A stretch of 64,000 nt of DNA from Elusimicrobiota bacterium. GTDB lineage: Bacteria; Elusimicrobiota; Elusimicrobia; Elusimicrobiales; UBA9959. Made by a program: the position numbers and the translations under genes. Each line of letters starts with the position of its first letter. The first letter of the stretch is position 1. The notes beneath the pieces are model-generated. The model was not told the origin of the DNA. It searched no databases and worked only from the letters and a program-made list of their open reading frames with translations. Positions 10,580 to 38,641 of this stretch are shown piece by piece. Location: NCBI GenBank assembly GCA_012517235.1, contig JAAYVI010000037.1:15411-79410 (forward strand), written 5' to 3'.

Positions 10580-10581
10580 TT

Positions 10582-11175: not shown

Positions 11176-11738
11176 TAATCTCCTTTTTTAGTTTTTCTTA
11201 TTCTCGTTTCCATAACCGATTCGCCGCATTTATCGCATTTTACGGACTTAAATATTTTAGCTCTCGCGGGCAAAGGCATTTTAATTCTTTTTATATTCAA
11301 CAAATCTTCGTCTTTTTTAGTTAAAAGCTTTTTTTCTCTTTCTTTTTTAATTTTTTTAAATAGCGATTTTTCTTTATCGTTTGCCTTCCCGTGCAAAACT
11401 TTATTCATAAGAGAATAGAAATTTTCTTGAGCTTTATCGTTATTTTCGCTTTTAAAAGAGACTCTTACTCCTTTACCGTCTTTTCTGCTTAAGAGGAACA
11501 AAACCATTTTACCGTAATCTTTAAAGATAAGATTTCCTTTTCCGAAAGTACATCCGGTTAAAACGCTTACCGCATCCACAAAACAAGAGCTATTTTCTAC
11601 TATGGCAACTACTTCTTCGTCTTTGGCAAAAGAAGATTTTAAATTTTTCATCGCAGCCTTGGCGGCTCTATACCCCATTAATAATCCTCCGCATAAATGT
11701 CCGTGGAAATCAACGCATTTTTTTAAGTCTTTTTTCAT
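11151..11738 (-). CDS. FmdE-family protein with C-terminal zinc ribbon
   Basis: CVDFHGHLCGGLLMGYRAA (FHGH.C.G motif of the FmdE domain). The C-terminus is CDKCGES...DYCLEC. AAGGAGG RBS. Confidence 0.75.
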   Translation of the reverse strand: MKKDLKKCVDFHGHLCGGLLMGYRAAKAAMKNLKSSFAKDEEVVAIVENSSCFVDAVSVLTGCTFGKGNLIFKDYGKMVLFLLSRKDGKGVRVSFKSENNDKAQENFYSLMNKVLHGKANDKEKSLFKKIKKEREKKLLTKKDEDLLNIKRIKMPLPARAKIFKSVKCDKCGESVMETRIRKTKKGDYCLECLEK

Positions 11739-11751
11739 ATCGTCCTCCTTT

Positions 11752-13556: not shown

Positions 13557-14610
13557 CTTTTTGCGATATTCTCTTATAAAATCTTTTTTCTTCGGTAAAA
13601 TAATGATATACGTCTTTACCTAAAAAATCTTTGATTATTTCCGCGGCTTTTTTATCAATATTCAAATCAGAAAAACTTTCCGGAAAAAGAATTTTTCCTA
13701 TAAAATACGCGTTTGCAAAAACTATTTCGACATTCGTAGTATAATAATTGTAGGGTAAAGTAGTATAAACATTTCTTTTTTTGAAAGCTTTTAATGTAAG
13801 ATAATAATTTTTACTTTTATTATAATCGTCTATGAACGCATCCAGCCCTCCAGAATCTAAAAATATATACTCCGGATTTAAAACGGCCAACTTTTCTTTA
13901 TCTATGAAAATATGAAGCGGTTTTTCTTGAGAATCTATTACGCTCTTTAATCCTAATAGAGAAAAAGGCTCATATAAGTATTGAGTACTAAGTATTCCTT
14001 GAGAACCCTTAAATCCCAATCCTCCTACATAAATTTCCGGATTTAATTTTCCGGCCGAACGTTTGGAGAGGTCCGAAACATAATAATCTATTCTTTTTAA
14101 CAAAAAATTAGCTCTATCCTCGGCCGCTAATATCTTTCCCAAAGAAATCAATGTTTTCTTAAATTTTTCCAGCTCAAAAGTCCCCAAGTTCCCATAGTCG
14201 GCGTTAAATACGGGGATACCGGTTTTAGCGGAGATTGACGAAGACAAAGCAAAATCTGCCGAACAAAGAACTATCAAATCGGGACGCAGCATCAATATTT
14301 TTTCATAATCCGGAATTTTATCCGGTCCGCCTTCGGAAATAATAGGCAGTTTTTTAAAAATTTCTCTATATGCCGCGTTATAAGGTCTTCCTTGAGGATA
14401 TTTTATTTCTATATTTTCCGTAGCTATAAGTTTTTCTGTTTTCCCCAAGTAAGAGATTAAACGAGCTGCGCCCGGCCCGATCGCTATTATTTTTTCCGGA
14501 GTTTTAGGCAGTTCTATTTTTTTCCCGTAGGAATCGTAATATATTTCGCAAAAAGAATTTGAAATTAAAAAAAATATAAACAATAAACAATTAATTTTTA
14601 TGGTTTCCAT
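13531..14610 (-). CDS. Periplasmic substrate-binding protein, class III (iron-chelate/cobalamin type)
   Basis: Signal peptide, PEKIIAIGPGAARL and RPDLIV motifs typical of the FhuD/BtuF family. Confidence 0.8.
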   Translation of the reverse strand: METIKINCLLFIFFLISNSFCEIYYDSYGKKIELPKTPEKIIAIGPGAARLISYLGKTEKLIATENIEIKYPQGRPYNAAYREIFKKLPIISEGGPDKIPDYEKILMLRPDLIVLCSADFALSSSISAKTGIPVFNADYGNLGTFELEKFKKTLISLGKILAAEDRANFLLKRIDYYVSDLSKRSAGKLNPEIYVGGLGFKGSQGILSTQYLYEPFSLLGLKSVIDSQEKPLHIFIDKEKLAVLNPEYIFLDSGGLDAFIDDYNKSKNYYLTLKAFKKRNVYTTLPYNYYTTNVEIVFANAYFIGKILFPESFSDLNIDKKAAEIIKDFLGKDVYHYFTEEKRFYKRISQKDEIYFQRI

Positions 14611-15344
14611 ACCAGTATTCCTTTCAAAGCTTGCGTTTCCATTATGACTTTATCCGATGGGAACTCTTTTTTTAAAAAAGAAACTATAAGATTTCTATTC
14701 GGCCGCTTACCTTCAAGCCTTACTCTCGAAGATAACTCCCTGTAAGCTTCTTCAATGTCTCCGCGCCAATTCCACGAAGATTCAAAAATTTCTTCTTTAA
14801 ATTTTATTTTTCTTTTTATCAATATATCCTTAAGATTATAAAATCCTTTTGGCATATACGGAGATATTCCGTGTAATAAAAGAACTTTATCGGCTATATC
14901 GTTTTTTCTTTTACCGGCCCATCCTATAAAAACACAATCCCCTTTTGTTAGCGACTCCATTTTTATCACGTCTTCTTCCGTTTTTATCGCCGGAGTCATT
15001 GAAGCAAAAGCTATGTCAAAGTATTTATATTTGCCGGCACAATCCCATTGTTCAAAAAGGGCTTGTTCGAAAAAAATATTTTTTATATTGCTATTTTTCA
15101 CTTGCTTTGAAAAATAATATATCATCTCGCTCGAAAAATCCAAACCAAAAACTTCGGCCGCTAGGTCGGCAAAAAGAATCGAATAATTGCCCGGTCCGCA
15201 TCCTATATCCAATATTTTTTTATGGTCAAAACAAACTCCCAATTTTTTTAATCTCGACATCGTTTCATTAAAAGATTTTATATTGTCTTTATCGTAAGCT
15301 TTAGGGTACTTTTCCGCTTTTATATTCCAAAAATTTTGATTCAT
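14598..15344 (-). CDS. Class I SAM-dependent methyltransferase (second copy in the locus)
   Basis: Motif I ILDIGCGPGNYS. It overlaps the downstream binding-protein gene by 13 nt. Confidence 0.75.
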   Translation of the reverse strand: MNQNFWNIKAEKYPKAYDKDNIKSFNETMSRLKKLGVCFDHKKILDIGCGPGNYSILFADLAAEVFGLDFSSEMIYYFSKQVKNSNIKNIFFEQALFEQWDCAGKYKYFDIAFASMTPAIKTEEDVIKMESLTKGDCVFIGWAGKRKNDIADKVLLLHGISPYMPKGFYNLKDILIKRKIKFKEEIFESSWNWRGDIEEAYRELSSRVRLEGKRPNRNLIVSFLKKEFPSDKVIMETQALKGILVWKP

Positions 15345-15354
15345 TTTTTTTATT

Positions 15355-17448
15355 TTAAAAAGATGCTTTTAAAGTTACTCCGCCTATCCTTCCGGCCATA
15401 GGATATCCGTATTTTTCAGAATATTTTTCATTGAACAAATTTTCGCAATAAGCGGAAAATTCCAAACTTTTATTGTACTTTAATTTATATTCCAAGGCAA
15501 AAAGAGAATAAGAAGATAGAACCGCAAGTTTATACTTATATGTTCCGGTTTTATAACTATAAACGGTTTTCTGATTGTCGGTAAATCTCCAAGAACCAGA
15601 AAAAGAAGATTTTTGACTCAAATAATATTGAACACCGATATTTGATTTGATTTTTGGCATATAATCCAATTCTTTCGATGTCCCGCTATCGTAGGGATCA
15701 TAGCCTTTTTTTGATTTTTGAAAAGAAAGATTGGCATAATAATCCATTTTTTTATTTTTTTTACCTCTGTAATCGGCAGAAAAACCGTATATGCGCACAT
15801 TGTCTATATTATAAACCGCCCTGCCGGAACCCGAGTTGATATCTGTTCTGAACATTATATAATTGTCTATATTGTAGTTGTATGCCGATAAAGTCAAGTA
15901 ATTCTCTTCTAATATTTTTTTGGAAAAAGAAAATTCCAGAGCCTGATTTTTTTCCGATTTAAGACTATTCGTCCCTCCCGTAATACCGCTCGACCACCAA
16001 TAGACTTCCGGCATTCCGGGCGTTCTCGATTTAATATAAGCTTTTAAAGAAATCTTATTTTCTTGCGAAAGATTCCAAGATAAACCCGCAGAAGGACTTA
16101 ATGACGAGTCATTGAGAGTTTTAACAGAAGATCCGTTAATAGGATTAACTTTATAGTCGTCATAACGTAATCCGCCTTCCAATAAAATTTTTTCAGACAG
16201 CGAAATTCTATCTTTGGCGTAATAAGCCCAAATTTTCCCCTCTTGACTGGCGGGTCCTCCCGTATAAGTTAAGTTATTGTTATAAGCTAAATCGTAATAA
16301 TATACGTTAATATCGCCAAAACCCAAATATTTATATTCCGCTCCCATTTCGAAGGAATTATTTTCTTTTTCTCCGGAAACATTAAAAGCGGTCCCCCAGC
16401 TTCTATCCGATTCCACTTTTCTATTAAGCACCAATAGTCCGTCTTGATATCCGGTTTTTATAAGATTTGAAGAATAATTTTTCTCAAATCTATTTTCTAT
16501 ATTTTTATACGCTTTAAATTCGCAATAAAACGAATATATCGGCTGTTTATATCCGAAATCAAGATATGTTTTTTCCTTTTCCCAAAAGGCGCCCGGCCCG
16601 GGTTGAAATATATTTTGATTTCCGGTGCCCGGAGCTATTACTTCTCCGAAAGCCAAGGGATAGTTCTCATCGTATTTTTGATAAAAAAGAGGGTTAGAAG
16701 GGTCCGCAGATTTTCTGTTATTTCTTATAAAACCTCTATTTGTATTGGAATAATTTCCTCCGATTTCCATTAAACCTTCGTAGGGCATATCGAAAAATAA
16801 ATTTATCCCGGCGTTTTTAGCCGCGTAGTCGTTATTCCAAAAAAATTCGTCCGCTTTCCCGTAACTTGCGCTAAAAGAATATCCGAATAGTCCTTTTTTC
16901 CAAGAATTGTATACTCTGTAATTTTGAATATAATCTATATCTTGCGCCAAAGAATAATTGGCAAAAAAACCGCTTTTCATTTCTTCGGAGGGAGGATTTG
17001 TTTTTATATTTATTACTCCTCCCAAAGCATTATTGCCGTATTTAACGTCGGATCCTCCTTTTATTAACTCTACCTTTTCTATATTATCCAGAGGAAGAGT
17101 AGACCAATCTATATAATACCCTCCGACTACGCCCGCGGCATTAAGGCTTCTTCCGTTAAGATTTAAAAGCAACCTATTTGAAGAAAGTCCGCGAATTGCC
17201 AACATATCCGCATTGTCGCTTACTATAGTTCTTCTTCTGATATCTACTTCCGGTTCGTTTTTTAATATGTCCGGCAAATATATATTTCTGCCTTTTTCCA
17301 CCGATTTAGTCGAAAAATCCGATATATTTTCGTCTTTCAAAGATTTTTCCGAAACTATTATTTCGCTGAAATTACCTTCGTAATAGCCAAAAGCGGATAA
17401 ATTGTAAAAGGCCAAAATTACAAAAATTGTTATTTTTTTAAAGTCCAT
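15355..17448 (-). CDS. TonB-dependent outer-membrane receptor
   Basis: Plug-domain motifs (IRGLSSNRLLLNLNGRSLN; VEKVELIKGGSDVKYGNNALGGVINI), a long beta-barrel region and a terminal F. Start ATG 17448 has AGGAGA upstream; the track start is a GTG. Confidence 0.9.
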   Translation of the reverse strand: MDFKKITIFVILAFYNLSAFGYYEGNFSEIIVSEKSLKDENISDFSTKSVEKGRNIYLPDILKNEPEVDIRRRTIVSDNADMLAIRGLSSNRLLLNLNGRSLNAAGVVGGYYIDWSTLPLDNIEKVELIKGGSDVKYGNNALGGVINIKTNPPSEEMKSGFFANYSLAQDIDYIQNYRVYNSWKKGLFGYSFSASYGKADEFFWNNDYAAKNAGINLFFDMPYEGLMEIGGNYSNTNRGFIRNNRKSADPSNPLFYQKYDENYPLAFGEVIAPGTGNQNIFQPGPGAFWEKEKTYLDFGYKQPIYSFYCEFKAYKNIENRFEKNYSSNLIKTGYQDGLLVLNRKVESDRSWGTAFNVSGEKENNSFEMGAEYKYLGFGDINVYYYDLAYNNNLTYTGGPASQEGKIWAYYAKDRISLSEKILLEGGLRYDDYKVNPINGSSVKTLNDSSLSPSAGLSWNLSQENKISLKAYIKSRTPGMPEVYWWSSGITGGTNSLKSEKNQALEFSFSKKILEENYLTLSAYNYNIDNYIMFRTDINSGSGRAVYNIDNVRIYGFSADYRGKKNKKMDYYANLSFQKSKKGYDPYDSGTSKELDYMPKIKSNIGVQYYLSQKSSFSGSWRFTDNQKTVYSYKTGTYKYKLAVLSSYSLFALEYKLKYNKSLEFSAYCENLFNEKYSEKYGYPMAGRIGGVTLKASF

Positions 17449-17476
17449 ACTATTCTCCTGTAACACGTTTATTAAA

Positions 17477-17528: not shown

Positions 17529-18353
17529 TTAGTTTTTTGAAAAATATTTTGATTTTAAAAAAGTAAATATTGAAACTATGGTTAAAAAAAATCCGAAAGA
17601 GGCTATAACCGTCGGCCCCGTAGGACTATCTAATTTTGCGGATAAAAAAAGTCCTATCATAGTTATTAAAGTTCCCGAAAACCATGAAAATATTATTCTG
17701 GATTTAAACGTACCGCATAAAAGTACCGAAATAACCGCCGGTATTATTAAAAAAGTAAATACCAAGAAAACTCCCGCCAGTTCTACGGAGCTTGTAACTA
17801 CTACTCCGAAAAGAGAGTAAAACAGAAAATCCCACATTCGAAGATTTTTCAGATTCTCCGATTTAGCCGGATTGAAAGATATGCTCATAAATTTATCTCT
17901 AAAAAAATAATGCAAAATTCCTATAAAAGAATATAAAAAAGCCGTTTTTATTATTTGCTCTTTGCTTACAAATAAAATATTGCCTACGAGCATTTCTTTA
18001 ATATGTTGGGCTTCCGCGGGAAGTTTGTCTAAAATCAAAATACTAACCGCCGCGCTTAACACATACACTATGCCTATAACGGCTTCCTGAGGGATTTCTT
18101 TATTTTTTCCTCCTCTGTAAAAAGAAAAAATCACGGAACCCAACAATGTAAAGGCAAGAGAAAAAAAATAAGATCCTCGGCTATGAAGATCTTGACCGAA
18201 AAAGATAGAAACTATCGCTCCGCAGGCGGCTAACTGAGCCAAAGACAAATCCGCAAATATTACTCCTCTTGCAAGTATGTGTAGTCCCAAATACGAATGA
18301 ATTCCTATGAGTATTATCGATACAAAAAAAGCCGGAAGCATAATCTCTAACAT
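17529..18353 (-). CDS. Metal (Zn/Mn) ABC transporter permease, ZnuB/TroCD family
   Basis: 274 aa with 8-9 TM segments and typical ABC-3 family sequence (ADLSLAQLAACGA). Confidence 0.8.
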   Translation of the reverse strand: MLEIMLPAFFVSIILIGIHSYLGLHILARGVIFADLSLAQLAACGAIVSIFFGQDLHSRGSYFFSLAFTLLGSVIFSFYRGGKNKEIPQEAVIGIVYVLSAAVSILILDKLPAEAQHIKEMLVGNILFVSKEQIIKTAFLYSFIGILHYFFRDKFMSISFNPAKSENLKNLRMWDFLFYSLFGVVVTSSVELAGVFLVFTFLIIPAVISVLLCGTFKSRIIFSWFSGTLITMIGLFLSAKLDSPTGPTVIASFGFFLTIVSIFTFLKSKYFSKN

Positions 18354-18366
18354 AAAATCCCCCGAT

Positions 18367-19251
18367 CTAATCTTTTATTTTTTTTATTATTACGTCAAAT
18401 AAAGAAAAATAATCCGAAGCCGAATTCTCTCCCGCTACCGACGAAGGTATAACTATTAATCGAGCACCGGTTTTATTTGCTATTTCTTTAGGAGTGTTTA
18501 AGGAATAAAAATTATCTACGAGTATTATTTTTATTTTTTCTTTTTTTATAAGCTCAAATAAAAAAGATAAGTGATTTGCATTTGGCGGTATTCCGGGTTT
18601 AGGCTCTATATTTGCCGCAACTTGCAAATCGAAAGCTTGAGCAAAATAAATCCAAGAGTTATGATAAGTAATTATTTTTTCTCCGGCAAAAGCCGACATA
18701 TCGGACTTCCAGACTTTCATTTTATCGTCTATTTTTCGGCAAAAATCCGAATATCTTTTTTCAAAATACTCTTTTTTTTCCGGTTTAATACGCAAAAGAC
18801 CCAATTTTATATTTTTAGCTATTATTTTTCCGTTTTCCGGATTCAGCCAATAATGAGGATTGCCGAATATATGTATATCGCCGGAAGAACCGTCTATTTT
18901 TTTATCCGGTTTTTGCATTATATCTATACCCGCGGAAGCGTCGACATATCCTTCTTTGCCGTAAAAAATTTTTTCGTTTTTTGCGGCATTTATCAAAGAA
19001 TCCGTCCACATATCCAAATCCAAACCTATTTTTACGACCATATCGGCTTTCTTAAGTTTAAATACCATACTCGGTCTCGGTTCTATAAAATGTATATCGA
19101 AACCTCCCGGAGAAAGAGATTCTACGGATACCTCTTCTCCCCCTACATATTCCGCTATGCTTTTCAAGTCTTGAGACGAAGCGATAATATTTATTTTCGC
19201 ATAGGAAGGAATCGATAAAAACAAAAATAGAGATAAAGATAATATTTTCAT
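18367..19251 (-). CDS. Metal-binding periplasmic protein, ZnuA/TroA (cluster A-I) family
   Basis: Signal peptide MKILSLSLFLFLSIPSYA. Family motifs include DIHFIEPRPS, GNPHYWLNP and YHNSW. ATG 19251 is preceded by GGAGAA. Confidence 0.85.
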   Translation of the reverse strand: MKILSLSLFLFLSIPSYAKINIIASSQDLKSIAEYVGGEEVSVESLSPGGFDIHFIEPRPSMVFKLKKADMVVKIGLDLDMWTDSLINAAKNEKIFYGKEGYVDASAGIDIMQKPDKKIDGSSGDIHIFGNPHYWLNPENGKIIAKNIKLGLLRIKPEKKEYFEKRYSDFCRKIDDKMKVWKSDMSAFAGEKIITYHNSWIYFAQAFDLQVAANIEPKPGIPPNANHLSFLFELIKKEKIKIILVDNFYSLNTPKEIANKTGARLIVIPSSVAGENSASDYFSLFDVIIKKIKD

Positions 19252-19261
19252 TTTTTTCTCC

Positions 19262-20410
19262 TTATTCAAGTTCGTGACTATGAGGGCCTATGCCGAAAGA
19301 AAGTTGAAACCATCCCTCGCTTATATTTTTACCGTTTATGTTTCTATGTTTACCGGTAATTCTCCAATAAGAAGTTTCCGTAAGATGTCTTGTGATTATT
19401 GCGGAAAAGGATCTTTCGTAAGATATTTGAGGCCAGGCATTTTCCGAATAATCAAGTCTTACTCCGTAATCCCAATATTTATCGGCTCTATAATTTAAAA
19501 AGGAATAAAAGCCGTCTCTATTAAGCGTTCCTACGGGGATATCTCTTTTTAAACGCATCCACTCGTTTTGAAAAGTCCATTTTTTATAGCTATCGGGAAA
19601 CCACTTAAAGGTAATATCCGCTCCTATCATTTCGACATTATCTTTATGTTCTTGATAATGAGCTCCCCTGCCTTTAAGTCCGCTGAGACCTATTTCAATT
19701 TCTTTTTGACCGTTCATATCAAATGATGAATTCCATCTGGCGGTATAAACTTTATCGGAAGGAGAGAAAGAAGAATCGTCGTGAAGGAGAGAATTAACGG
19801 TTATAGTCGAACCGGTTATATCGAGAACGCTCGCTTCTTCTTGAGCGTGGCTATGAGCGTTTATATCCCAAAAACCGGCTTGAATTTGACTATAAAAAGG
19901 AAAAATGGGAATAAGATATTTTAATACCGCTCCCTGTCCGGCTAACTCGTGTTCGCCGAAAAATTTTTCAAGCATAAGAGGCTTATCGGTAGTAGGTAGA
20001 TGATGAGTGTGAAGCTTGTTGACTTTGCCAAAGTCAATGTGTATTTTGCCGGCCTCGGCGGAAAAGCCGTAACCCAGATTTAGAAAACTCGCTTTCGCCT
20101 CGCAAATTTCGCTTTCATAATCCCCGTCATGTTTATGTATGGCGGTAATTATATCGGCCCTCATTTCGGGGTAAATATAACCTTGAAATGCTATCTCCAC
20201 TTCGTTAATGGAAAGCTGATTTTTGTCTGCATCTTTGGAATCGTCGCTTATATATCCGACGATATTGCCTAAAGCGCTTATATCGGGAAGATTTAATGTC
20301 TTTCCTCTCATCCCCTGTAAAGGCGTGCCTTCGCTTAAAACCGGATTTTCTTGCGCTTTTAGATTGTAAAAAAACATATTAAATATCAAAAGAAAAAGTA
20401 TTTTTTTCAT
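19262..20410 (-). CDS. Secreted, probably outer-membrane beta-barrel protein with His-rich motifs
   Basis: Signal peptide (FFYNLKAQ). Alternating-hydrophobicity segments and His clusters (KLHTHHLP, NAHSHAQEE, GPHSHELE). First gene of the znuA-znuB string. AAGGAG RBS. Confidence 0.45.
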   Translation of the reverse strand: MKKILFLLIFNMFFYNLKAQENPVLSEGTPLQGMRGKTLNLPDISALGNIVGYISDDSKDADKNQLSINEVEIAFQGYIYPEMRADIITAIHKHDGDYESEICEAKASFLNLGYGFSAEAGKIHIDFGKVNKLHTHHLPTTDKPLMLEKFFGEHELAGQGAVLKYLIPIFPFYSQIQAGFWDINAHSHAQEEASVLDITGSTITVNSLLHDDSSFSPSDKVYTARWNSSFDMNGQKEIEIGLSGLKGRGAHYQEHKDNVEMIGADITFKWFPDSYKKWTFQNEWMRLKRDIPVGTLNRDGFYSFLNYRADKYWDYGVRLDYSENAWPQISYERSFSAIITRHLTETSYWRITGKHRNINGKNISEGWFQLSFGIGPHSHELE

Positions 20411-20436: not shown

Positions 20437-20456
20437 AAAACGCCTTTTATTAGGCG
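20437..20456 (-). terminator. Weak intrinsic terminator-like hairpin
   Basis: Minus strand reads CGCCT-AATAAA-AGGCG followed by TTTT. It lies between the 97-aa ORF and the His-rich OMP gene. Confidence 0.35.
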
Positions 20457-20481
20457 AGCAATAAAAATTTTATTTGGGATT

Positions 20482-20775
20482 TTAAGAAAAAAAAGGAGGA
20501 GCTCTGGAGAAAGAAAAAATAAAAAAATATTTTATAATAGGCTTATCAGAAAATGATTCGCGCGTCGATATTATTTTTTCCGGTTTCAAAATAAGGTTAG
20601 TACCGCAGTCGCAATTGAGCTGCGGAGACATGACACAAGAGCATAAATGGCATTTACCTTCTTTATATTCGTGATTTTTTTCATTTATATGGAAAGCCCA
20701 AACGAACGCAATAAACATAGAAAGCAAGAAATTGGCAAAAGGCAAAAAAAGATTTTTTCTATTAATAAAAATCAT
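20482..20775 (-). CDS. Small membrane-anchored Cys-rich hypothetical protein
   Basis: 97 aa with one TM (FLLSMFIAFVWAF), then KEGKCHLCSCVMSPQLNCDCG. The start overlaps the thioesterase stop. No family recognised. Confidence 0.35.
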   Translation of the reverse strand: MIFINRKNLFLPFANFLLSMFIAFVWAFHINEKNHEYKEGKCHLCSCVMSPQLNCDCGTNLILKPEKIISTRESFSDKPIIKYFFIFSFSRAPPFFS

Positions 20776-21221
20776 AGAGGTTCGTCTTTTTTAAGCAAAT
20801 CGCTTTCCATAAATTTAGCGGTTGACTCGGCCACCATTTTGCCATCTTGAATAATAGAAGAGCTTAATATATGAAGCGGATTCCACGATTTTTCTATTTT
20901 GGCATTTATCGACATCTTTCTTCCGCATCGCATAGGTTTTAAGTACTTAACGGAAAGCTCGGCGGTAAAAGCGGCTATTCCGTGATAAAAAAGACAATTT
21001 GTCATGGCGCTATCCATAAGAGCGGCGGCTACGCCTCCCTGCAGAAAACCCTTGTAGCCTTCGTAAGCAAATTTAGGCATGAACTCGGCTTCGACTGCGC
21101 CCGATTCGGTAAGCCGGAAATAAACTTTCAGGCCTAACGGATTTTTTTCGCCGCATACTATACAAGTGTCGTGGCAAGCATGCAGGCGGGAATGATTTTT
21201 CAGGTATTTATTTTCTTTCAT
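20772..21221 (-). CDS. PaaI/hotdog-fold thioesterase with N-terminal Cys4-type motif
   Basis: LQGGVAAALMDSAM hotdog motif. The N-terminus is CHDTCIVCG. ATG 21221 sits 1 nt after the pdaD stop; the track start is a TTG inside pdaD. Confidence 0.65.
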   Translation of the reverse strand: MKENKYLKNHSRLHACHDTCIVCGEKNPLGLKVYFRLTESGAVEAEFMPKFAYEGYKGFLQGGVAAALMDSAMTNCLFYHGIAAFTAELSVKYLKPMRCGRKMSINAKIEKSWNPLHILSSSIIQDGKMVAESTAKFMESDLLKKDEPL

Positions 21222-21222
21222 T

Positions 21223-21771
21223 TCATTCGGCAAAAACCGCAGCCGCAACTACGGTTGTCCATACTCCTTCCTTGCCTATGGCCGACTGTGTCATATTCAT
21301 GGTTTTTACTATCTTCCCGCTCATTTCCCACTGTTTTTCTTTTTCATCCCAAGATGTTTCGCTTGCAAACTCTATTCCCAAAGTAGTAGAAAGCATCAGC
21401 GCCGCCAAATCTTCGGCATATTCCCCGGCGGCAAAATCTGTTTCTCCGTAGCTATGATGTTCGGAAATATATCCGTGATTGGCCTTATCCTTGGGTATAG
21501 CCAGACCTATTGAGGCGGTGACCAGACGATGATTTTCCTTAACCGCATTTCGCGCCAGAACGGCATGAACTATCTGCCCGCTTTTCATTTTCGCCAATCC
21601 CTGTTCGGGTCTTATGAGTTTGCATCCGGGAGGGAAAATGCTTGATACGTGCACGAGGTTAAATCTCGCTATTTTTGCGTCTCTTAGCGCTTCTTCAAAG
21701 CTTGCCAGTTTTTCTTTATGTCTGCCAACCCCTTTAGTTAAGAATATTTTTTTTGCCACAAATGAGTCCAT
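21223..21771 (-). CDS. pdaD: Pyruvoyl-dependent arginine decarboxylase
   Basis: 182 aa. [12 protein letters not shown] contains the Ser-Ser self-cleavage site typical of PdaD. GGGAGGA RBS. Confidence 0.85.
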
Positions 21772-21836: not shown

Positions 21837-22208
21837 TTATTTTTGCGAAATCATCCATTTGCTGATCGCCGAATAAAAAGAAGAGCAAGCCAAGATAGGG
21901 CAATGCTCATGTTCAAAAGGCAATCTTCCTAAAGTCTTGGTTATAAGCCCGGGCGAGACAAAAAGCGCCTCGTCTATTTTTTTCCCATCCGCGTAAAAAC
22001 AAACCAGTGCCCCGCAAGCCGAAGTCCAGCCGCAGCCTGAAGTATGGTATTTTATGCAAGAAATGGCATTGTCGCTAAATTTAAGATAAAATTCCATTTC
22101 GTCTCCGCAAGGCCCCTTGAAATAAGAAGCCGCGTCGGCATTTTCCATTTTTCCCGAATATTTTTCAATTATCTCTTCTATTATCACAATATTTTTATCT
22201 TTGTTCAT
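21837..22208 (-). CDS. IscU/NifU N-terminal-domain-like Fe-S scaffold protein
   Basis: Three scaffold Cys in the canonical contexts: GPCGDEM, SGCGWTSAC and EHCPILA. Confidence 0.8.
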   Translation of the reverse strand: MNKDKNIVIIEEIIEKYSGKMENADAASYFKGPCGDEMEFYLKFSDNAISCIKYHTSGCGWTSACGALVCFYADGKKIDEALFVSPGLITKTLGRLPFEHEHCPILACSSFYSAISKWMISQK

Positions 22209-23082
22209 CGGTTTCCCCGATAAAAATAATTTCTCTGACCTTATCCCATATTTTTCTTATTTCCTCTGCCGCGGCAGAAGAGCCGTATTTAACCAGAGGA
22301 CGCATATTTTCTATGGCTTTCTCAACACTTTTGTCAAAAGGAATTCTGCCAAGCACTTTTATTTTATTTGAATTACAATAATTTTCTATCTCTTGGCAAT
22401 TATCCGCATTTATGTCCCATTTATTAATAACCGCCGCGCATGGAATTTTAAAAGATGACGCGGTTTCAAAAACTCTTTTCATATCGTGTATACCGGAAAG
22501 CGTAGGCTCCGTTATTATAACGGCCAGATCCGCTGAGGATAGAGAAGCCATAAGCGGACAGCCCGTCCCAGGCGGGCCGTCGACTATTATAAGTCTTTTT
22601 TTTTCTTTGACTGCGGTTTCAACGGCCTCTTTCTTTACCCTGCTTACCAGCTTTCCTGAATTTTCCGACCCCGGCTCAAGTCGCGCATGAATCAAATGCC
22701 CGTAAACAGTTTTTGAAAAAAACCATTTTCCCGAAATCCTCTCTTTCATTTCTACGGCTGAGACCGGACATACTTTGGCGCAAAACGCGCATCCTTCGCA
22801 AGAATAGATATCGACATTAAAAGTTTCATTTATCGCCTCAAAACGGCATATTTCCCTGCACTTGCCGCAAGAAATACATAAAGAAGGATTTATAAAAGCT
22901 GTCTTGCCCGAGTAAAAATCATGTGAAGCGATAATTTCCGGCTCTAAAAGTATATGCATATCTGCGGCGTCCACATCGCAGTCTACCGCGACACAATCTC
23001 CGCCGGCCAAGGAAAAGAAAGAAGCCGCAAGAGTTGTTTTTCCCGTACCGCCTTTGCCGCTTATTATCACTAATTGTTTCAT
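22195..23082 (-). CDS. MinD/ParA-superfamily P-loop ATPase with inserted 2x[4Fe-4S] ferredoxin domain (copy 1)
   Basis: Walker A SGKGGTGKTT. The insert is CISCGKCREIC ... CEGCAFCAKVCP. Walker B-like IIVDGPPGTGCP. ATG 23082 is preferred over the track TTG. Confidence 0.85.
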   Translation of the reverse strand: MKQLVIISGKGGTGKTTLAASFFSLAGGDCVAVDCDVDAADMHILLEPEIIASHDFYSGKTAFINPSLCISCGKCREICRFEAINETFNVDIYSCEGCAFCAKVCPVSAVEMKERISGKWFFSKTVYGHLIHARLEPGSENSGKLVSRVKKEAVETAVKEKKRLIIVDGPPGTGCPLMASLSSADLAVIITEPTLSGIHDMKRVFETASSFKIPCAAVINKWDINADNCQEIENYCNSNKIKVLGRIPFDKSVEKAIENMRPLVKYGSSAAAEEIRKIWDKVREIIFIGETDEQR

Positions 23083-23127
23083 ATTTTTATCTTGCCTAGA
23101 CAATATATCTTAATATTAAAAGCATGT

Positions 23128-23979
23128 TTAGCGCGTTTGCTTAATCTTTGCCAAACTAATAATTTTTTCATAAATCTTATCAAAAATACCGGCATATCCT
23201 TTAATTTTAATCGCCATTTCACCTCTGGAATAAAGAACCGCTATATCGCGGTCAAAAGGTATTTTGCCGATAACGCTCATTCCTTTTTTTTCAAGCCTTG
23301 ACGCAAAACTTTCATGGCCTTCCCATCTGTTTATGACAACGCCGAAGGGAATTTGCATCTTTCTAACAGCTTCTGCTGCTATTTCCAAATCGTTCATTCC
23401 AAATTCCGTAGGCTCTGTCACTAGAACGCAAAAGTCCGAGCCTTTAACTGCCGCAATCATAGGACAAGAAGCTCCCGGAGGAGAATCTACTATGGCGGTA
23501 ACTCCAGCCGGAATCCTTTTCTTTACCTCATTTATCAGAAAAGGAGTTTTTATTTCCCCGCTATCGAGTCGTCCTCCTATATATCCTACATTGCCGGAAA
23601 AGCCGGATTCTATGATACCTATCCTTTTTGGAATTTCTCTTATGGCTTTTTTTTCACAAACCCATGCGCAAGCCCCGCAATTATGGCAAAGATGAGGAAG
23701 AATGAATACTCCCCCTTCCACATTCTTGAAAACATTAATGGCTTTATACTCGCACACCGAAGAACAAAGCCCGCATAAGTTGCAAAGATTTTTGTCTACC
23801 GAAGGTAAAAGCGTTGAAATTTCTTCTTTCAAGGAAATATCGGGTTTAAGAAAAATATCCGCATTGGGCTCTTCCACGTCGCAATCGAGCAAAAACGATT
23901 TTTCAATGGAAAGAGCCATATTCACGGCTACGGTAGTTTTTCCCGTACCGCCTTTGCCGCTGGCGACGGAAATTATCAA
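23128..23979 (-). CDS. MinD/ParA-superfamily P-loop ATPase with inserted 2x[4Fe-4S] ferredoxin domain (copy 2)
   Basis: Walker A SGKGGTGKTT. The insert is CNLCGLCSSVC ... CHNCGACAWVC, followed by IVDSPPGASCP. The TTG start has GGGAGGA 4 nt upstream and forms a TTGA overlap with the upstream stop. Confidence 0.85.
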   Translation of the reverse strand: MIISVASGKGGTGKTTVAVNMALSIEKSFLLDCDVEEPNADIFLKPDISLKEEISTLLPSVDKNLCNLCGLCSSVCEYKAINVFKNVEGGVFILPHLCHNCGACAWVCEKKAIREIPKRIGIIESGFSGNVGYIGGRLDSGEIKTPFLINEVKKRIPAGVTAIVDSPPGASCPMIAAVKGSDFCVLVTEPTEFGMNDLEIAAEAVRKMQIPFGVVINRWEGHESFASRLEKKGMSVIGKIPFDRDIAVLYSRGEMAIKIKGYAGIFDKIYEKIISLAKIKQTR

Positions 23980-24710
23980 GAAATCCTCCCTATTGCCACC
24001 GCTTTTTTTCCGCGAAGCAAGCGAAAACTTTTACCTTCCGAAAGATCGCTAAGAAGCAGAGAAGGATCGCATACAAAAGTGCCGCAGACGCAATCGACAT
24101 AGTTCAGAAGAGAAGGATGCATCGGAGCCGAAGGGCCAAGAAGAACCTTAAAAGAATCGCGACGACAAGATGAAATTATTTTTTCAAATGTGCCGTTCAT
24201 AAGCGTAAGCGCGGTTAAAGCTATCACATCAACTTCTCCGAGAAATTTTTCCATTTCTTGGGCGGTTATGTCTTTTTCGCTTTTCGGGGAAAGCTCCGAT
24301 ACTTTAAGCACGCTTGCTATTTCATACAAACGCGTTACGAAAGGAAAATGCCCGATGACAGCCACTTTTTTCCCGGCTCCTCGAGTTTCTATTATTTCCT
24401 GCGCATTTATCTCCAAAAAATTAACTTCGGGAAGACAGGAGTTAAGGCAGGCAAAAGCCAAAGAGATCTCCGGTCCCGTGCCTGAAACAAGTTCAGTCGC
24501 GATATTAAGAGTATTTTCTCCTTTAAGCTTAAGACCCGCACGCAAACCGCCAGAACAAACCCCTTCTTTTAGGGTACTGGCCAAACCGCAGTATTTTTTA
24601 CCTTTAGGAGAAACAGAAACCACCCCTGTGGTAAAAAATCCTACGCTTGCCTGCTCTATTGTAAAATCTTTCCCGGCTTGGGAAAAAATCTCATCGAGAA
24701 GCGCTATCAT
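23976..24710 (-). CDS. DUF364 (putative metal-chelation Rossmann-like) domain protein
   Basis: 244 aa. The central KKVAVIGHFPF and the overall layout resemble the DUF4213/DUF364 family. Assigned from memory. Confidence 0.55.
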   Translation of the reverse strand: MIALLDEIFSQAGKDFTIEQASVGFFTTGVVSVSPKGKKYCGLASTLKEGVCSGGLRAGLKLKGENTLNIATELVSGTGPEISLAFACLNSCLPEVNFLEINAQEIIETRGAGKKVAVIGHFPFVTRLYEIASVLKVSELSPKSEKDITAQEMEKFLGEVDVIALTALTLMNGTFEKIISSCRRDSFKVLLGPSAPMHPSLLNYVDCVCGTFVCDPSLLLSDLSEGKSFRLLRGKKAVAIGRIS

Positions 24711-25033
24711 TCTGGATTTTTCCCAAAATCGGACAAAACCTGTTCTACGGTTTTAGAGGAAGAAAAACCCGTAACGGCTTTTATTTTCGCGGCTTCAAGA
24801 GCAGATGAAGCATTGCCGCCTATATGACCGGCAAGAAGAATTTGGACGCCAAAAGACGACAACTGTCTGACGGCTTCTGGCCCCGCGCCGCTATCGAGTA
24901 AAACAGCCGAATTTTTAACCGCCTTGAAAGATGAAGAAGAAGTGTCGTATATTATGAAATACGGCGCCCTTCCGAATTTTTCGCAGAAAGCGCTATCTAA
25001 AGTTTCTCCCATTGAAGTAGCGGCTATTATCAT
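24707..25033 (-). CDS. NifX/NifB-C-terminal-like (dinitrogenase FeMo-cofactor-binding fold) protein, copy 1
   Basis: MIIAATSMGETLDSAFCEKFGRAPYFIIYD matches the family N-terminus (HFG.ap.F.iyd). ATG 25033 is preceded by GGAGAA; the track start is a TTG. Confidence 0.75.
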   Translation of the reverse strand: MIIAATSMGETLDSAFCEKFGRAPYFIIYDTSSSSFKAVKNSAVLLDSGAGPEAVRQLSSFGVQILLAGHIGGNASSALEAAKIKAVTGFSSSKTVEQVLSDFGKNPE

Positions 25034-25047
25034 ATTTCTCCAAAAGA

Positions 25048-25431
25048 TCAGTGCTGGCAAGAGCCGTGATGATCGTGGTCTTTACACGGATCTATATTTC
25101 CAAGGGAACTTTCCAGAAATTCCTTTACCGCAGCCGAAGCCTTACCGCAGTAAGTAAAAACCGGCACATTGGCCGCCGCAAATTTATTTATGGCATTGGG
25201 GCCCATGCCGCCAGCTACGACATGCGAAACCCGATACTTCAGTATTTCACTGACAGCCTGGCAACCTCCGCCACCGTGCTGGGCAGTATTGGCTACGACT
25301 TGCGAAGATTTTATTTTTTCGTTTTCTATGTCCACAATCAAAAAATAGCCGCATTGACCGAAATGCGCTGACACTTCGCTATCCATACCTCTATCATCCG
25401 TCAAAGTGACAGCCAATCTTATTTTTTTCAT
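25048..25431 (-). CDS. NifX/NifB-C-terminal-like protein, copy 2, with His/Cys-rich tail
   Basis: SAHFGQCGYFLIVD, SHVVAGGMGPNA and a C-terminal CKDHDHHGSCQH. GGAGAA RBS. Confidence 0.75.
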   Translation of the reverse strand: MKKIRLAVTLTDDRGMDSEVSAHFGQCGYFLIVDIENEKIKSSQVVANTAQHGGGGCQAVSEILKYRVSHVVAGGMGPNAINKFAAANVPVFTYCGKASAAVKEFLESSLGNIDPCKDHDHHGSCQH

Positions 25432-25664
25432 TTTTTCTCCATGTCTTCAAGTTTGGAATTTATGTTTTTCAGCTCTTCCTCAAGAATTTTCTTTTCTTCT
25501 TTAAGAGAAGAGACATCCTCTTGCAAATAATTAACGCCATATCCGCGCCTTAAACCTCTCCGAGCCGCAAAACCGCCTCTTCCGGCGCCGCGCCCGCAAG
25601 GACCTCTTTTCCAACCTGTCGCAGGCCCAAAACCGGATGGCCCCGTTCCGTCTCTGTATGGCAT
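25428..25664 (-). CDS. DUF5320-like small protein (Gly/Arg-rich N-terminus, coiled-coil C-terminus)
   Basis: MPYRDGTGPSGFGPATGWKRGPCGRGAGRGG..., then LKEEKKILEEELKNINSKLEDMEKK. AGGAGGA RBS. Confidence 0.65.
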   Translation of the reverse strand: MPYRDGTGPSGFGPATGWKRGPCGRGAGRGGFAARRGLRRGYGVNYLQEDVSSLKEEKKILEEELKNINSKLEDMEKK

Positions 25665-25665
25665 A

Positions 25666-25857
25666 TTATCCTCCTTTTTTCTTATTTTCAGCTTCCATTA
25701 TAAGATTATAATGATAGCTTCCTTCTCTTACCAAAACTGTTTTACATAAAGGGCAGGTTTTATTTCTGCACCTTTCACCCTGTATGTGATTTTCCCTGTA
25801 CCCGCATTTATGGCAGACACAGTATCCGCCAAAACCCATATTTCCTCTCGAGTTCAT
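25666..25857 (-). CDS. Small Cys-rich zinc-ribbon-like protein
   Basis: 63 aa: GGYCVCHKCGY...ERCRNKTCPLCK. Its stop is 1 nt from the DUF5320 start. Confidence 0.5.
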   Translation of the reverse strand: MNSRGNMGFGGYCVCHKCGYRENHIQGERCRNKTCPLCKTVLVREGSYHYNLIMEAENKKKGG

Positions 25858-26339
25858 GATAGATTTTGCTCCTTTTTATGTAAGACAACAAAAATCTCTT
25901 TTACTTCCCGCGAGACGGCTTTTACAATCTCTCTCATCTCTCCCGAGCTCAAAAGCTTCATAAGTCCGCCGTTCATCATGGCAATATATGTTTTGCCGTC
26001 TTTTTTTTCATAAACAGAAACAGCTTTGGGAGAAAAAACCGAAATTTTTTTTCTTGAATCTGCGGAAAACATCATTGAAGCAAACCCGCCATGGCAGTAA
26101 TGTATAATCGCAATTCTTCCGACAGGAGACCCTCCGTTTGCGACTATTTCGCTTCCTTGATCTATTACGCCGAAAAGATGCCAGCCTTTTTTATTTGAGA
26201 TTCTCTCTTTTATAATGTTTATGGTTTCCTCATAACCGTAAGCGCTGGGAAATTCTTTTATCATAATATTTAAAAAAGATTCCCTTAATAAAAAAGCCGC
26301 AAACAGGATAATGCAGACCGATATAAAACAAAATGTCAT
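25854..26339 (-). CDS. DUF302-domain protein with N-terminal membrane anchor
   Basis: 161 aa. N-terminal hydrophobic segment, then a DUF302-like core (WHLFGVIDQG...IHYCHGG). It overlaps both neighbours by 4 nt. Confidence 0.55.
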   Translation of the reverse strand: MTFCFISVCIILFAAFLLRESFLNIMIKEFPSAYGYEETINIIKERISNKKGWHLFGVIDQGSEIVANGGSPVGRIAIIHYCHGGFASMMFSADSRKKISVFSPKAVSVYEKKDGKTYIAMMNGGLMKLLSSGEMREIVKAVSREVKEIFVVLHKKEQNLS

Positions 26340-26845
26340 TTTACCTCCCGATTTTCTTTTTTACACTTTTCGCAAAAGCCATAAAAATGCAACGAATGTC
26401 CTTTTATAAGAAAATTATGCCGGTTTGAAAGAGTTTTTTCTATTTTATTGAAAAAATCTCTTTCTTCGTCCATAAAGTCATAGTATTCCATTATTTTTCC
26501 GCAATTGGAACAAACCAGATGATGATGGTGGCTGCCGCCTTCATGCCCGTCGGATAATTCATATTTGGCTTTTCCCTCTCCAAAATCAAATCTATTTAGC
26601 ACACCCGACGAAGACAAGGCAGATAGCGTGCGATAAACGGTAGCTATTCCAAGCCCGGGATATCGCAGTGCCAACTTGGCAAAGACCTCTTCGGCAGTAA
26701 AATGGCCTTTTTCATGGTGAAAAAAATCAACTATTGCCCGCCTTGGACCTGTAATTCTGCCGCCGCTTCTGTTAAAACAACCGCGAAGACGACCTTCGCG
26801 GCAACATGAAAAATTTAATCTTGCATTTTTTTTATTGATATTCAT
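26336..26845 (-). CDS. fur: Fur-family metalloregulator
   Basis: Winged-helix segment (ITGPRRAIVDFF...GIATVYRTL), a HHHHLVCSNCG ... FYGFCEKC structural CxxC pair and a His-rich site. ATG 26845 is preferred, because the track TTG at 26881 is the -35 hexamer. Metal specificity (Fur/Zur/Per) is not determinable by eye. Confidence 0.85.
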   Translation of the reverse strand: MNINKKNARLNFSCCREGRLRGCFNRSGGRITGPRRAIVDFFHHEKGHFTAEEVFAKLALRYPGLGIATVYRTLSALSSSGVLNRFDFGEGKAKYELSDGHEGGSHHHHLVCSNCGKIMEYYDFMDEERDFFNKIEKTLSNRHNFLIKGHSLHFYGFCEKCKKENREVK

Positions 26846-26854
26846 TATCAATAA
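26832..26854. promoter_or_regulatory. Perfect 9-5-9 inverted repeat, Fur-box-like, overlapping the fur start codon
   Basis: Minus strand reads TTATTGATA-ATGAA-TATCAATAA. It contains GATAATGA, as in the classical Fur box, and the ATG inside the spacer is the fur start. Confidence 0.6.
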
Positions 26855-26881
26855 GATATCAAAAAAAAATAAACCTGTCAA
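26853..26881 (-). promoter_or_regulatory. Candidate promoter of the fur-headed operon
   Basis: TTGACA (26881-26876), 17 nt, TATCTT (26858-26853). The -10 ends 7 nt before the ATG and there is no Shine-Dalgarno, so this is leaderless geometry. Confidence 0.5.
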
Positions 26882-38640: not shown

Positions 38641-38641
38641 A

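Follow-up and report, generated by a model that had tools for sequence, protein, structure and literature searches.

A Fur-headed gene cluster of an Elusimicrobiota bacterium as a very probable variant of the orange protein (ORP) system

In a 64,000-nucleotide stretch of the genome of an Elusimicrobiota bacterium (NCBI GenBank assembly GCA_012517235.1, contig JAAYVI010000037.1, positions 15,411 to 79,410 of the forward strand), the whole of which we call the window, we analysed a cluster of ten minus-strand genes that begins with a Fur-family regulator gene and encodes NifX-like proteins, a pair of ferredoxin-bearing MinD-type ATPases and an IscU-like scaffold. We conclude that this cluster very probably belongs to the ORP (orange protein) system, as a member or a variant of it. 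Judged from its sequence, it forms a single compact operon with a Fur box over the promoter. As to function we hypothesize, giving the idea an even chance of being right, that the operon encodes a Fur-controlled, iron-responsive kit of ORP type, without a dedicated client enzyme, that would hold and pass on iron-sulfur (Fe-S) or metal-sulfide units.

The cluster does not represent a new category of system. The first description of the orange protein dates back more than 20 years, and the ORP system is already known. What is new is the Fur-headed arrangement, which occurs in six phylum-level lineages and is undescribed as far as our literature search shows, together with a split architecture resembling that of IssA and the addition of DUF364, IscU and DUF302 proteins to the ORP core. 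A preliminary description of this DNA had called the gene set uncharacterised, a term that has to be given up, since the core is the ORP system, a named complex with biochemical data (PMC6345978, PMC8359166). Its reading of the cluster as an assembly or trafficking system remains plausible. It had also stated that these families co-occur in anaerobes without an assigned function; the wide co-occurrence is borne out by the 80 loci described below, but an ORP literature does exist.

The operon and its relationship to ORP loci

The ten genes are, in order of transcription:

26336..26845, minus strand: fur, Fur-family regulator, 169 residues from ATG 26845, with an N-terminal Cys-rich extension (Pfam FUR)
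25854..26339, minus strand: DUF302 protein with an N-terminal hydrophobic anchor (Pfam DUF302)
25666..25857, minus strand: Cys6-His ribbon protein, 63 residues (no Pfam family)
25428..25664, minus strand: DUF5320 protein (Pfam DUF5320)
25048..25431, minus strand: NifXa, NifX-like (Di-Nase) protein a (Pfam Nitro_FeMo-Co)
24707..25033, minus strand: NifXb, of the orange-protein (ORP/Orp8) type, 108 residues from ATG 25033 (Pfam Nitro_FeMo-Co)
23976..24710, minus strand: DUF4213/DUF364 protein with enolase-N-like and Rossmann-like folds (both Pfam families)
23128..23979, minus strand: MinD1, MinD/ParA-type ATPase with an inserted 2×[4Fe-4S] ferredoxin domain, Orp3/Orp4 type
22195..23082, minus strand: MinD2, paralogous partner ATPase with an inserted 2×[4Fe-4S] ferredoxin domain
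21837..22208, minus strand: IscU/NifU_N-type scaffold, 123 residues (Pfam NifU_N)

All ten open reading frames (ORFs) run head to tail from 26881 to 21837, and their coordinates and tight packing are as the preliminary description gave them. The successive junctions measure -4, -4, +1, -4, -13/+14, -4, -4, +24/+45 and -14 nucleotides, where +14 applies to NifXb read from ATG 25033 and +45 to MinD2 read from ATG 23082. These two starts, and that of fur at ATG 26845, were refined with the orthologues in L001, a locus from an Elusimicrobia metagenome-assembled genome that is the closest relative of the cluster (its DUF364 protein is 71% identical to that of the window). When checked with hidden Markov models (HMMs), every family named in the preliminary description scored above its Pfam gathering threshold: FUR with 102.7 bits (cutoff 23.1), DUF302 with 29.6 (23), DUF5320 with 40.9 (27), Nitro_FeMo-Co with 66.3 in NifXa and 69.7 in NifXb (26.3) and NifU_N with 57.8 (22), as well as DUF364 and DUF4213 in one gene (101.6 and 29.3 bits) and CbiA/ParA and Fer4 in both MinD genes. 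In NCBIfam, both NifX-like proteins and both ATPases matched parts of the MrpORP model; otherwise no specific name was returned.

As a reference orp locus we used L088 of Desulfovibrio sp. X2, in which two σ54 activator genes (one per strand) and the genes for two Gly/Arg-rich proteins, ORP, two MinD-Fer4 ATPases and a NifX protein follow one another. Four core proteins of the window pair one-to-one with four core proteins of L088, with E-values from 1.5e-14 to 1e-83. NifXb pairs with ORP (38% identity, E 1.5e-14), NifXa with the second Di-Nase protein (28%, E 3e-14), MinD1 with the first MinD-Fer4 protein (L088_8351; 36%, E 4e-61) and MinD2 with the second (L088_9252; 45%, E 1e-83), the cross matches being far weaker. 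Directly upstream of the ORP gene in L088, at 7059-7900, we also observed the two Gly/Arg-rich proteins, which are unannotated and have cationic stretches that are rich in Gly, Arg and Gln and contain Cys; they may be DUF5320 counterparts missed by Pfam.

In Desulfovibrio vulgaris the MinD-like proteins are Orp3 and Orp4, with a pair of [4Fe-4S] motifs apiece, and a small Fe-S protein is known as Orp5. The orange protein itself is Orp8, a Di-Nase/NifX-like protein that binds a Mo-Cu-S cluster non-covalently, and the Orp7 gene shares an operon with those of Orp8 and of Orp9 (MrpORP), a fusion of a Di-Nase and an Mrp domain. Orp3, Orp4, Orp5, Orp8 and Orp9 form a physical complex, and Orp3, Orp4 and Orp8 co-purify as Fe-S proteins (PMC6345978, PMC8359166); MrpORP donates Fe-S clusters to Orp3, Orp4 and Orp8 in vitro (PMC6345978). 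According to the literature, the orp genes are anaerobe-specific and possibly archaeal in origin (PMC8359166, PMC4641369, PMC3897727).

The features of the individual core proteins are as follows. NifXa has an HFGQC motif and a C-terminal CKDHDHHGSCQH tail, within which CKDH…C can be read; it matches positions 265-364 of the NCBIfam MrpORP model (46.7 bits), and its Protein Data Bank (PDB) matches include PH0822, TM1816 and MTH1175. NifXb finds TM1290 (1e-15) and the D. gigas ORP 2WFB (1.3e-10). MinD1 contains a deviant Walker A motif (SGKGGTGKT), two CxxCxxCxxxC motifs and a PPGxSCP motif. Conservation in the MinD2 family (98 sequences) stands at 97% for the signature and Walker-A lysines, 92% for the eight ferredoxin cysteines and 88% for Cys175 of PPGxGCP. 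Natural MinD1::MinD2 fusions of about 600 residues are common, and because the two are fused in many organisms it is implied that MinD1 and MinD2 act as a heterodimer. A library of representatives at 50% identity holds 714 relatives of the ATPases at E ≤ 1e-30. The Pfam Fer4_NifH match to the MinD ATPases is sub-threshold. The IscU-like protein has A. fulgidus IscU (4EB5, 3.4e-15) as its best PDB match, and its cluster ligands are intact, the motifs GPCGD, SGCG and HEHCP aligning with three Cys, Asp and His of 4EB5.

To place the cluster among its relatives, one genome per species was scanned with an alignment of eight MinD-Fer4 proteins, which gave at least 520 confirmed relatives, and the best 80 of these, which span more than 25 bacterial and archaeal lineages at phylum level, were surveyed as loci. 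The lineages include Chloroflexota, Omnitrophota, Planctomycetota, Bathyarchaeia, Atribacteria, Aminicenantes, Bacteroidales, Spirochaetes and methanogens. A family was counted when it lay within 6 kb of the anchor gene on the same strand; the ORFs were searched with HMMs of the window proteins and of recurrent neighbours, and the family names of neighbours were checked by Pfam. A second MinD-Fer4 paralogue is present in 67 of the 80 loci, a NifXb-type protein in 58 and a NifXa-type protein in 53. DUF5320 follows with 38, Mrp with 33, the Cys6 ribbon with 30 (each time directly upstream of MinD1), DUF134, a predicted DNA-binding protein, with 26, Zn_ribbon_8 with 24, a radical SAM protein with 22 and an IscU-like protein with 16, its gene lying after the MinD pair. 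Less frequent are a methyltransferase and a metallo-β-lactamase (15 each), ARMT1 (14), Fur (10), DUF364 and DUF1847 (6 each) and DtxR (4). The module thus travels with Fe-S carriers and metal-responsive regulators and not with a client enzyme: no catalytic client enzyme, nitrogenase or hydrogenase gene recurs in the 80 loci. A NifB-like identity of the linked radical SAM proteins was considered and rejected, as they gave weak generic matches only and no specific model.

The gene order of L001 (FUR, a 65-residue ribbon, DUF5320, NifX, NifX, DUF364, MinD-Fer4, MinD-Fer4, NifU_N, a PdaD fragment and 4HBT) contains the whole window order apart from DUF302. Given that this order recurs in L001 and the core order in the 80 loci of many phyla, the cluster is not a chance assembly. 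Two other Elusimicrobia loci have the same families spread over longer clusters, with ZIP, SLAC1/TehA, a thioredoxin system, DUF302, Mrp, ARMT1 and metallo-β-lactamase as extra genes. The Chloroflexi locus L007 reads PadR, DUF364, Mrp, VIT1, DUF5320, NifX::DUF5320, NifX and CDF::NifX, and an Mrp::NifX (MrpORP) architecture was found in three loci. Pump proteins carrying a NifX domain are encoded in L007 (15313-16566, adjoining the VIT1 and DUF5320 genes) and L009 (14938-16116), and their architecture suggests the NifX domain as a cytoplasmic sensing or donor module for metal or metal sulfide.

The small proteins of the operon appear to belong to this system as well. DUF5320 has a cationic N-terminal segment rich in Gly, Arg and aromatic residues with one Cys, followed by a C-terminal coiled coil; residues 1-46 comprise 14 Gly, 9 Arg/Lys, 6 aromatic residues, 1 Cys and 1 acidic residue. 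Fusions in which it stands C-terminal to NifX exceed the Pfam threshold in L007, L011, L017, L043 and L050 and stay below it in L029 and L052, and by eye about 14 loci show the architecture. (Our own DUF5320 HMM missed these fusions at the domain level, probably owing to low complexity; they were confirmed by Pfam.) A limited literature search found no paper on DUF5320. The ribbon protein has the motif C-x-C-x2-C … H … C-x5-C-x2-C and gives sub-threshold Pfam and NCBIfam matches only; a homologue search with the 63-residue protein returned the query alone, and the L088 locus has no ribbon homologue. It was considered as a candidate counterpart of Orp5, the small Cys-rich [2Fe-2S] protein of ORP, on which a limited literature search yielded nothing more. 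The consensus of the family is GGxCVCPxCGxKVPHxxGxPCxxxxCPxCGxxMVRE. Most members begin, as DUF5320 does, with MPRGDGTGP and a Gly/Arg-rich module, which the short forms of the window and L001 lack, and in L021 a single protein combines a NifX domain, a Gly/Arg-rich linker and a Cys6 ribbon. Because each of the two is fused to NifX in other genomes, DUF5320 and the Cys6 ribbon can be regarded, at the level of gene architecture, as genuine partners of the NifX domain.

The DUF364 protein matches PDB entry 3L5O (2.5e-8), and by its homologues the contig is assigned to Elusimicrobia. DUF364 occurs in ORP-like loci of six other lineages (the six survey loci mentioned above) and in four further ones (Elusimicrobia L001, L002/L003 and L006; Chloroflexi L007). 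In L004/L005 a 38%-identical DUF364 relative is unlinked to ORP genes, and we therefore class DUF364 as accessory and not core. The sole characterised member acts on methylated S-adenosylmethionine (SAM), which is cyclised to an azetidine amino acid (PMC12930334); the window protein is possibly a SAM-using or chelating enzyme. The DUF302 protein, whose start overlaps the fur stop by 4 nucleotides, has a strong ribosome-binding site (GGGAGG) ahead of its first ATG and an N-terminal hydrophobic helix (mean Kyte-Doolittle value 2.36 over 19 residues). The homologue in L002 has such a helix likewise, so that the earlier label 'membrane-anchored' is reasonable. Its gene is missing in L001 and is found in the extended cluster of L002.

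Control region and regulator

Two elements were recognised around the fur start:

26853..26881, minus strand: σ70-like promoter, TTGACA at 26881-26876, a 17-nucleotide spacer and a TG-extended TATCTT at 26858-26853
26832..26854, no strand: candidate Fur-box operator, a perfect 9-5-9 palindrome TTATTGATA-atgaa-TATCAATAA overlapping the fur ATG

The predicted promoter agrees with the consensus hexamers at 10 of 12 positions and has a TG preceding the -10. TTG 26881 was considered as the start of fur and rejected, as this TTG belongs to the -35 hexamer; ATG 26845 is the likely start, from which the protein has 169 residues, the same as its L001 orthologue. Upstream of that orthologue we find TTGACA-17-TATACT. 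The -10 hexamer ends 8 nucleotides before the fur ATG (26845-26858), which lies inside the operator, and the layout is the same in L001; because of this short distance the fur mRNA may be leaderless.

The whole operator palindrome, from 26854 to 26832 directly after the -10, is TTATTGATAatgaaTATCAATAA. Its core, TGATAATGAATATCA, agrees at 13 of 14 positions with the 7-1-7 Fur box TGATAATNATTATCA, the consensus established in Bacillus subtilis, where the operator types of Fur and of Zur and PerR have been defined. The palindrome is unique in the window, and none of 100 shuffled sequences contains one. With at most one mismatch to TGATAATNATTATCA the 64 kb hold a single site, the fur operator; sites with three mismatches occur at chance level in the window. 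The same operator was not found elsewhere in the window, including before the ZnuA and TonB-receptor genes. In L001 the 21-nucleotide palindrome core ATTGATAATGAATATCAATAA is identical and the promoter hexamers are kept, while the surrounding bases diverge. These observations agree with the autoregulated Fur-family repressor of the preliminary description, and autoregulation is likely.

The regulator matches the full length of the Pfam FUR model (102.7 bits). Among solved structures, true Fur proteins come closest to it (9ire, 3.7e-24; C. jejuni Fur), with PerR and Zur behind them. Aligned to Fur structures, the regulator shows the metal-site motifs HHHH-LVCSNCG and FCEKC, with C-xx-C sites. 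Among the NCBIfam equivalogs Fur (110 bits) ranks above PerR (78.5 bits) and Zur, all far below their cutoffs; as no equivalog cutoff is reached, the metal sensed is not settled by this comparison.

Nine cluster-linked Fur genes (L001, L006, L015, L018, L021, L023, L032, L045 and L052) score 224-249 bits against a profile that was built from all cluster-linked Fur sequences, the window protein included; three further linked Fur genes score only about 170 bits. The nine relatives have the N-terminal extension in common and stand at the head of ORP-like clusters, and they come from six phylum-level lineages: Elusimicrobia, Planctomycetia, Omnitrophota, Clostridia, Atribacteria and Aminicenantes. 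Fur-box matches of at least 11 of 14 positions are present in eight of the nine loci. Except in L001, the box lies 27-37 nucleotides before the ORF start, namely in L006 and in six loci from four other phylum-level lineages. Sites with up to three mismatches are expected by chance at about 7e-5 per position, or about 0.02 per 260-nucleotide region searched. Elsewhere the position of the regulator is taken by DtxR, DUF134, ArsR or PadR; DtxR-type iron repressors stand in for Fur in 4-6 loci. DUF134, a σ70-region-4-like helix-turn-helix protein often with a C-terminal zinc ribbon, is the commonest putative regulator of the survey (26 of 80, loci L008-L087). A limited literature search found no report on Fur control of ORP-like clusters or on Fur regulons with NifX-like genes.

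A 10-base-pair GC-rich hairpin with a T-rich run (26780-26802, minus strand), which encodes CCREGRLRGC of fur, was considered as an attenuator and rejected, not being conserved in L001; it is probably incidental. Rfam found no riboswitch or small RNA near the cluster, two tRNAs being its sole matches in the window.

Proposed function, alternatives and surroundings

We propose that when Fe(II)-Fur leaves the operator, a self-contained kit for iron-sulfur, or mixed metal-sulfide, units would be made. The NifX-like carriers, the cationic DUF5320 segment, which resembles the tail of IssA, and the Cys6 ribbon would hold anionic Fe-S or metal-sulfide species. In the MinD1-MinD2 heterodimer, ATP binding and hydrolysis together with four [4Fe-4S] clusters would gate the transfer of electrons or clusters, and the IscU-like protein (elsewhere Mrp) would receive or assemble standard clusters and deliver them to many apo-proteins. 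A cysteine desulfurase (IscS/NifS) was not found in the operon or the window, and of the unassigned gene clusters in the 80 loci, the 30 that recur most include none resembling a pyridoxal phosphate enzyme; ten of these 30 were checked by Pfam and the remainder by reading their sequences. Because no desulfurase is linked, sulfide might be used directly, and such an enzyme would then be unneeded.

Several points weigh against this proposal. The MrpORP fusion and OrpR of the reference system are missing in the operon, and the orange protein was isolated with a Mo-Cu-S and not an Fe-S cluster. The Desulfovibrio literature proposes a role for ORP in cell division (PMC8359166, PMC4641369, PMC3897727). 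A role in storage only fits poorly, because control by iron-loaded Fur implies induction at iron limitation, whereas IssA is made when iron and sulfide are abundant. DUF364 and the membrane-anchored DUF302 are accessory parts that the proposal leaves unexplained. Finally, co-transcription, the metal sensed by Fur and every mechanistic step are what we infer from the genes and their relatives.

A bolder version, which we put forward as a doubtful extension, is that ORP-type modules, made up of NifX-like carriers with a cationic DUF5320 or Cys6-ribbon partner, the MinD-Fer4 heterodimer and IscU or Mrp, are an ancient and near-universal route of anaerobes for building, storing and distributing Fe-S clusters directly from Fe(II) and free sulfide, without a desulfurase. 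In such a route the ferredoxin-bearing ATPase pair would perform an ATP-gated reduction and release of a thioferrate-like polymer, under the control of Fur or DtxR iron sensors in many phyla. If true, it would be a third or fourth general route of Fe-S biogenesis beside ISC, SUF and NIF, and a sulfide-based supply of this kind would give a new account of Fe-S biogenesis in anaerobes and on the early Earth.

Two alternatives are improbable to a similar degree. The operon could be devoted to maturing a single complex metalloenzyme whose genes lie elsewhere in the genome, such as a nitrogenase-like enzyme, hydrogenase, carbon monoxide dehydrogenase (CODH) or tungsten or molybdenum enzyme. Its parts are analogous to NifX, NifU and NifH, a radical SAM protein of no characterised family lies near 22 of the 80 loci, recalling a split NifB architecture, and the visible portion of the genome is 64 kb. 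However, neither the window nor the operon-like blocks of the 80 loci, from more than 25 lineages, contain a candidate client (in the loci, a recurring one), the linked radical SAM protein matches neither NifB nor another specific model, and the genes that recur beside the module encode metal regulators and Fe-S carriers of a general kind (Mrp, IscU). For the window itself, a scan of all large ORFs found no nitrogenase, hydrogenase, CODH or similar client and no nif structural or assembly genes, in agreement with the preliminary description, which had seen no client there.

Alternatively, the operon could sequester or detoxify a thiophilic metal that is not iron (Mo, W, Cu, Zn or metalloids); the ORP-type protein would capture thiometallate or metal-sulfide clusters, and the Fur-family protein would sense that metal. 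According to work cited in PMC6345978, [S2MoS2CuS2MoS2]3- is bound by the orange protein, which can also accommodate other metals, and DUF364 genes often adjoin transporters for Mo, W or V (PMC2954201; bioRxiv 10.1101/2024.03.05.583561). Related loci contain ZIP, ZnuA/ABC-3, SLAC1/TehA, VIT1, CDF::NifX, an SBP_bac_1/11 solute-binding protein and TehB-like methyltransferases, and in the window ZnuA/ABC-3 genes lie about 2.6 kb downstream of IscU. Against this, the operator is of the Fur-box type (TGA…TCA) and not of the Zur or PerR type, the regulator is nearest to true Fur proteins, DtxR iron repressors substitute for it elsewhere, the IscU and Mrp partners point to Fe-S, and transporters are neighbours in a minority of loci.

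Two further readings we consider highly improbable. A cell-division or positioning device of anaerobes, with the MinD-like ATPases as spatial regulators, would accord with the annotation of the OrpR regulon as 'cell division' (PMC4641369, PMC8359166), the location of MrpORP at a cell pole (PMC6345978) and the MinD/ParA superfamily of the ATPases, but minC, minE, ftsZ and other division genes were not found in the window or in the 30 top recurrent unassigned clusters of the 80 loci, and the ATPases have ferredoxin inserts and stand among cluster carriers under metal-responsive regulators. Equally hard to credit is a redox or oxidative-stress repair regulon in which a PerR-like peroxide sensor governs the rebuilding of oxidant-damaged Fe-S clusters: the regulator does score with PerR (78.5 bits, against 110 for Fur), related loci hold thioredoxin, AhpC/TSA, DsbD and pyridine-nucleotide disulfide reductases, and Desulfovibrio OrpR is a redox sensor (PMC8359166), yet the Fur and PerR matches both fall far below the equivalog cutoffs, the operator matches the B. 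subtilis Fur box rather than the PerR box, and a rising redox potential turns the Desulfovibrio orp genes off, not on (PMC8359166).

The ORP gene cluster is among the most widespread 'anaerobe signature' modules, and a Fur subfamily or DtxR at its head ties it to iron status rather than to cell division. The finding offers specific points of attack on a long-standing question and does not raise a new one.

Downstream of IscU the transcription unit may continue (20441..21771, minus strand; Pfam matches, with operon membership a surmise):

21223-21771, minus strand: pyruvoyl arginine decarboxylase (PdaD)
20772-21248, minus strand: 4HBT thioesterase
20482-20775, minus strand: 97-residue Cys-rich membrane protein
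20456-20441, minus strand: terminator-like hairpin

The gap between IscU and PdaD contains no terminator-like site; the first on the minus strand is the hairpin after the 97-residue ORF. In L001, PdaD (a fragment) and 4HBT likewise come after IscU. On the same strand past 20441, at 17529-20410, follow a 382-residue exported His-rich protein without a Pfam family, ZnuA and an ABC-3 permease, with no adjoining ATPase gene; ZnuA/ABC-3 lie about 1.4 kb downstream of the possible extension. The same trio is found near ORP-like clusters in three other genomes (L002/L003 13118-16044, L057 10312-13615, L066 2-842). Next comes a metal-uptake island (9504-17466, minus strand) comprising NikR, a methyltransferase, TonB, FmdE, an ABC ATPase, a FecCD permease, a periplasmic binding protein, a second methyltransferase and a TonB-dependent receptor. 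Its genes probably make up an uptake regulon of the nickel or corrinoid type, and the fur operator is absent from it.

Elsewhere in the window, a stand-alone Mrp/NUBPL-type Fe-S carrier ATPase (3604-4404, plus strand; ParA family, 259.8 bits) is encoded 18 kb away from the cluster; it could provide what Mrp does in other ORP-type loci, where Mrp is a fusion partner or a linked gene. At 38368-39348 (plus strand) a CsoR/RcnR-type repressor precedes a 223-residue YHS protein with a long Cys-rich, metallothionein-like tail. The C-terminal tail of an IscA/HesB-like Fe-S_biosyn protein encoded at 46360-46710 (minus strand), HDCCGEHNDDCCSGDEGGCCGK, is unusual and rich in Cys, His and Asp. An unrelated Pel-type exopolysaccharide operon occupies 48549-60165 (plus strand; PelD-like protein, PelF-like glycosyltransferase, PelG, GH114/PelA-like protein and TPR PelB-like protein), followed at 60174-61849 (plus strand) by genes for an MntP manganese efflux pump and a PapB-like radical SAM/SPASM peptide maturase. 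The remainder consists of housekeeping genes.

Comparison with known systems

The closest system is ORP as known from the operons of Desulfovibrio vulgaris Hildenborough, D. gigas and D. alaskensis. Both have an ORP-type Di-Nase protein (NifXb in the window) and a second Di-Nase protein with a Cys/His motif, CxHFGHCE … CDH in Orp7 and at the C terminus of Orp9 and HFGQC plus CKDH…C in NifXa; both have a pair of neighbouring MinD-type ATPases that are paralogues and carry two [4Fe-4S] motifs apiece; and both are restricted to anaerobes and have no known client enzyme. They differ in regulation, the window having a Fur-family protein and a Fur box on a σ70-like promoter whereas ORP uses the σ54 activator OrpR together with IHF. 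In D. vulgaris Hildenborough the orp genes are activated by OrpR only at very low redox potential (PMC8359166, PMC4641369, PMC3897727); their expression is lost on gas sparging, where according to the authors the rise in redox potential may reflect loss of H2S, and OrpR is restricted to the δ-Proteobacteria (PMC8359166). Furthermore, the window has a single operon in place of two divergent ones, a plain Mrp gene outside the cluster (the one at 3604-4404) instead of an Mrp::Di-Nase fusion within it, and DUF5320, DUF364, IscU-like and DUF302 proteins as additions.

The parallel with nitrogenase cofactor assembly, drawn in the preliminary description, holds at the superfamily level only, where NifU_N, the NifX domain and Fe-S-binding SIMIBI-class ATPases are shared. 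No nifHDKEN genes are linked in the window or among the recurrent genes of the 80 loci, the window ATPases are MinD-type proteins with a ferredoxin insert and not NifH, and the radical SAM proteins linked in other loci are not NifB. With Mrp/NBP35/ApbC the likeness is one of how the proteins work, as P-loop ATPase dimers to which Fe-S clusters bind and which hand them on; the window ATPases belong to another subfamily, in which the CxxC-type bridging site is replaced by a single conserved Cys in PPGxGCP, along with the ferredoxin insert. The E. coli Suf system, too, is similar only in how it works, as an Fe-S assembly system switched on when Fur loses its iron, which we would expect here; it differs in that the window has no SufBCD or SufS homologues.

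IssA of P. furiosus consists of an IPR003731 domain and a cationic, Gly/aromatic-rich tail with a single Cys, keeps a store of both iron and sulfur in the form of thioferrate and restores ferredoxin's [4Fe-4S] cluster (PMC5524996). Its thioferrate forms nanoparticles, and IssA is induced by abundant iron and sulfur, whereas the window operon stands under a Fur-type repressor. The window has the tail-like segment as a protein of its own, DUF5320, with an added coiled coil. Still, two globular IPR003731/Nitro_FeMo-Co domains are present (66.3 and 69.7 bits), the N-terminal 46 residues of DUF5320, probably disordered, share their composition with the IssA tail, which the stand-alone protein looks like in its cationic character, and the NifX and DUF5320 pieces are fused in relatives. 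Through the fusion of DUF5320 and the Cys6 ribbon to NifX elsewhere, ORP is linked to iron-sulfide storage of the IssA type.

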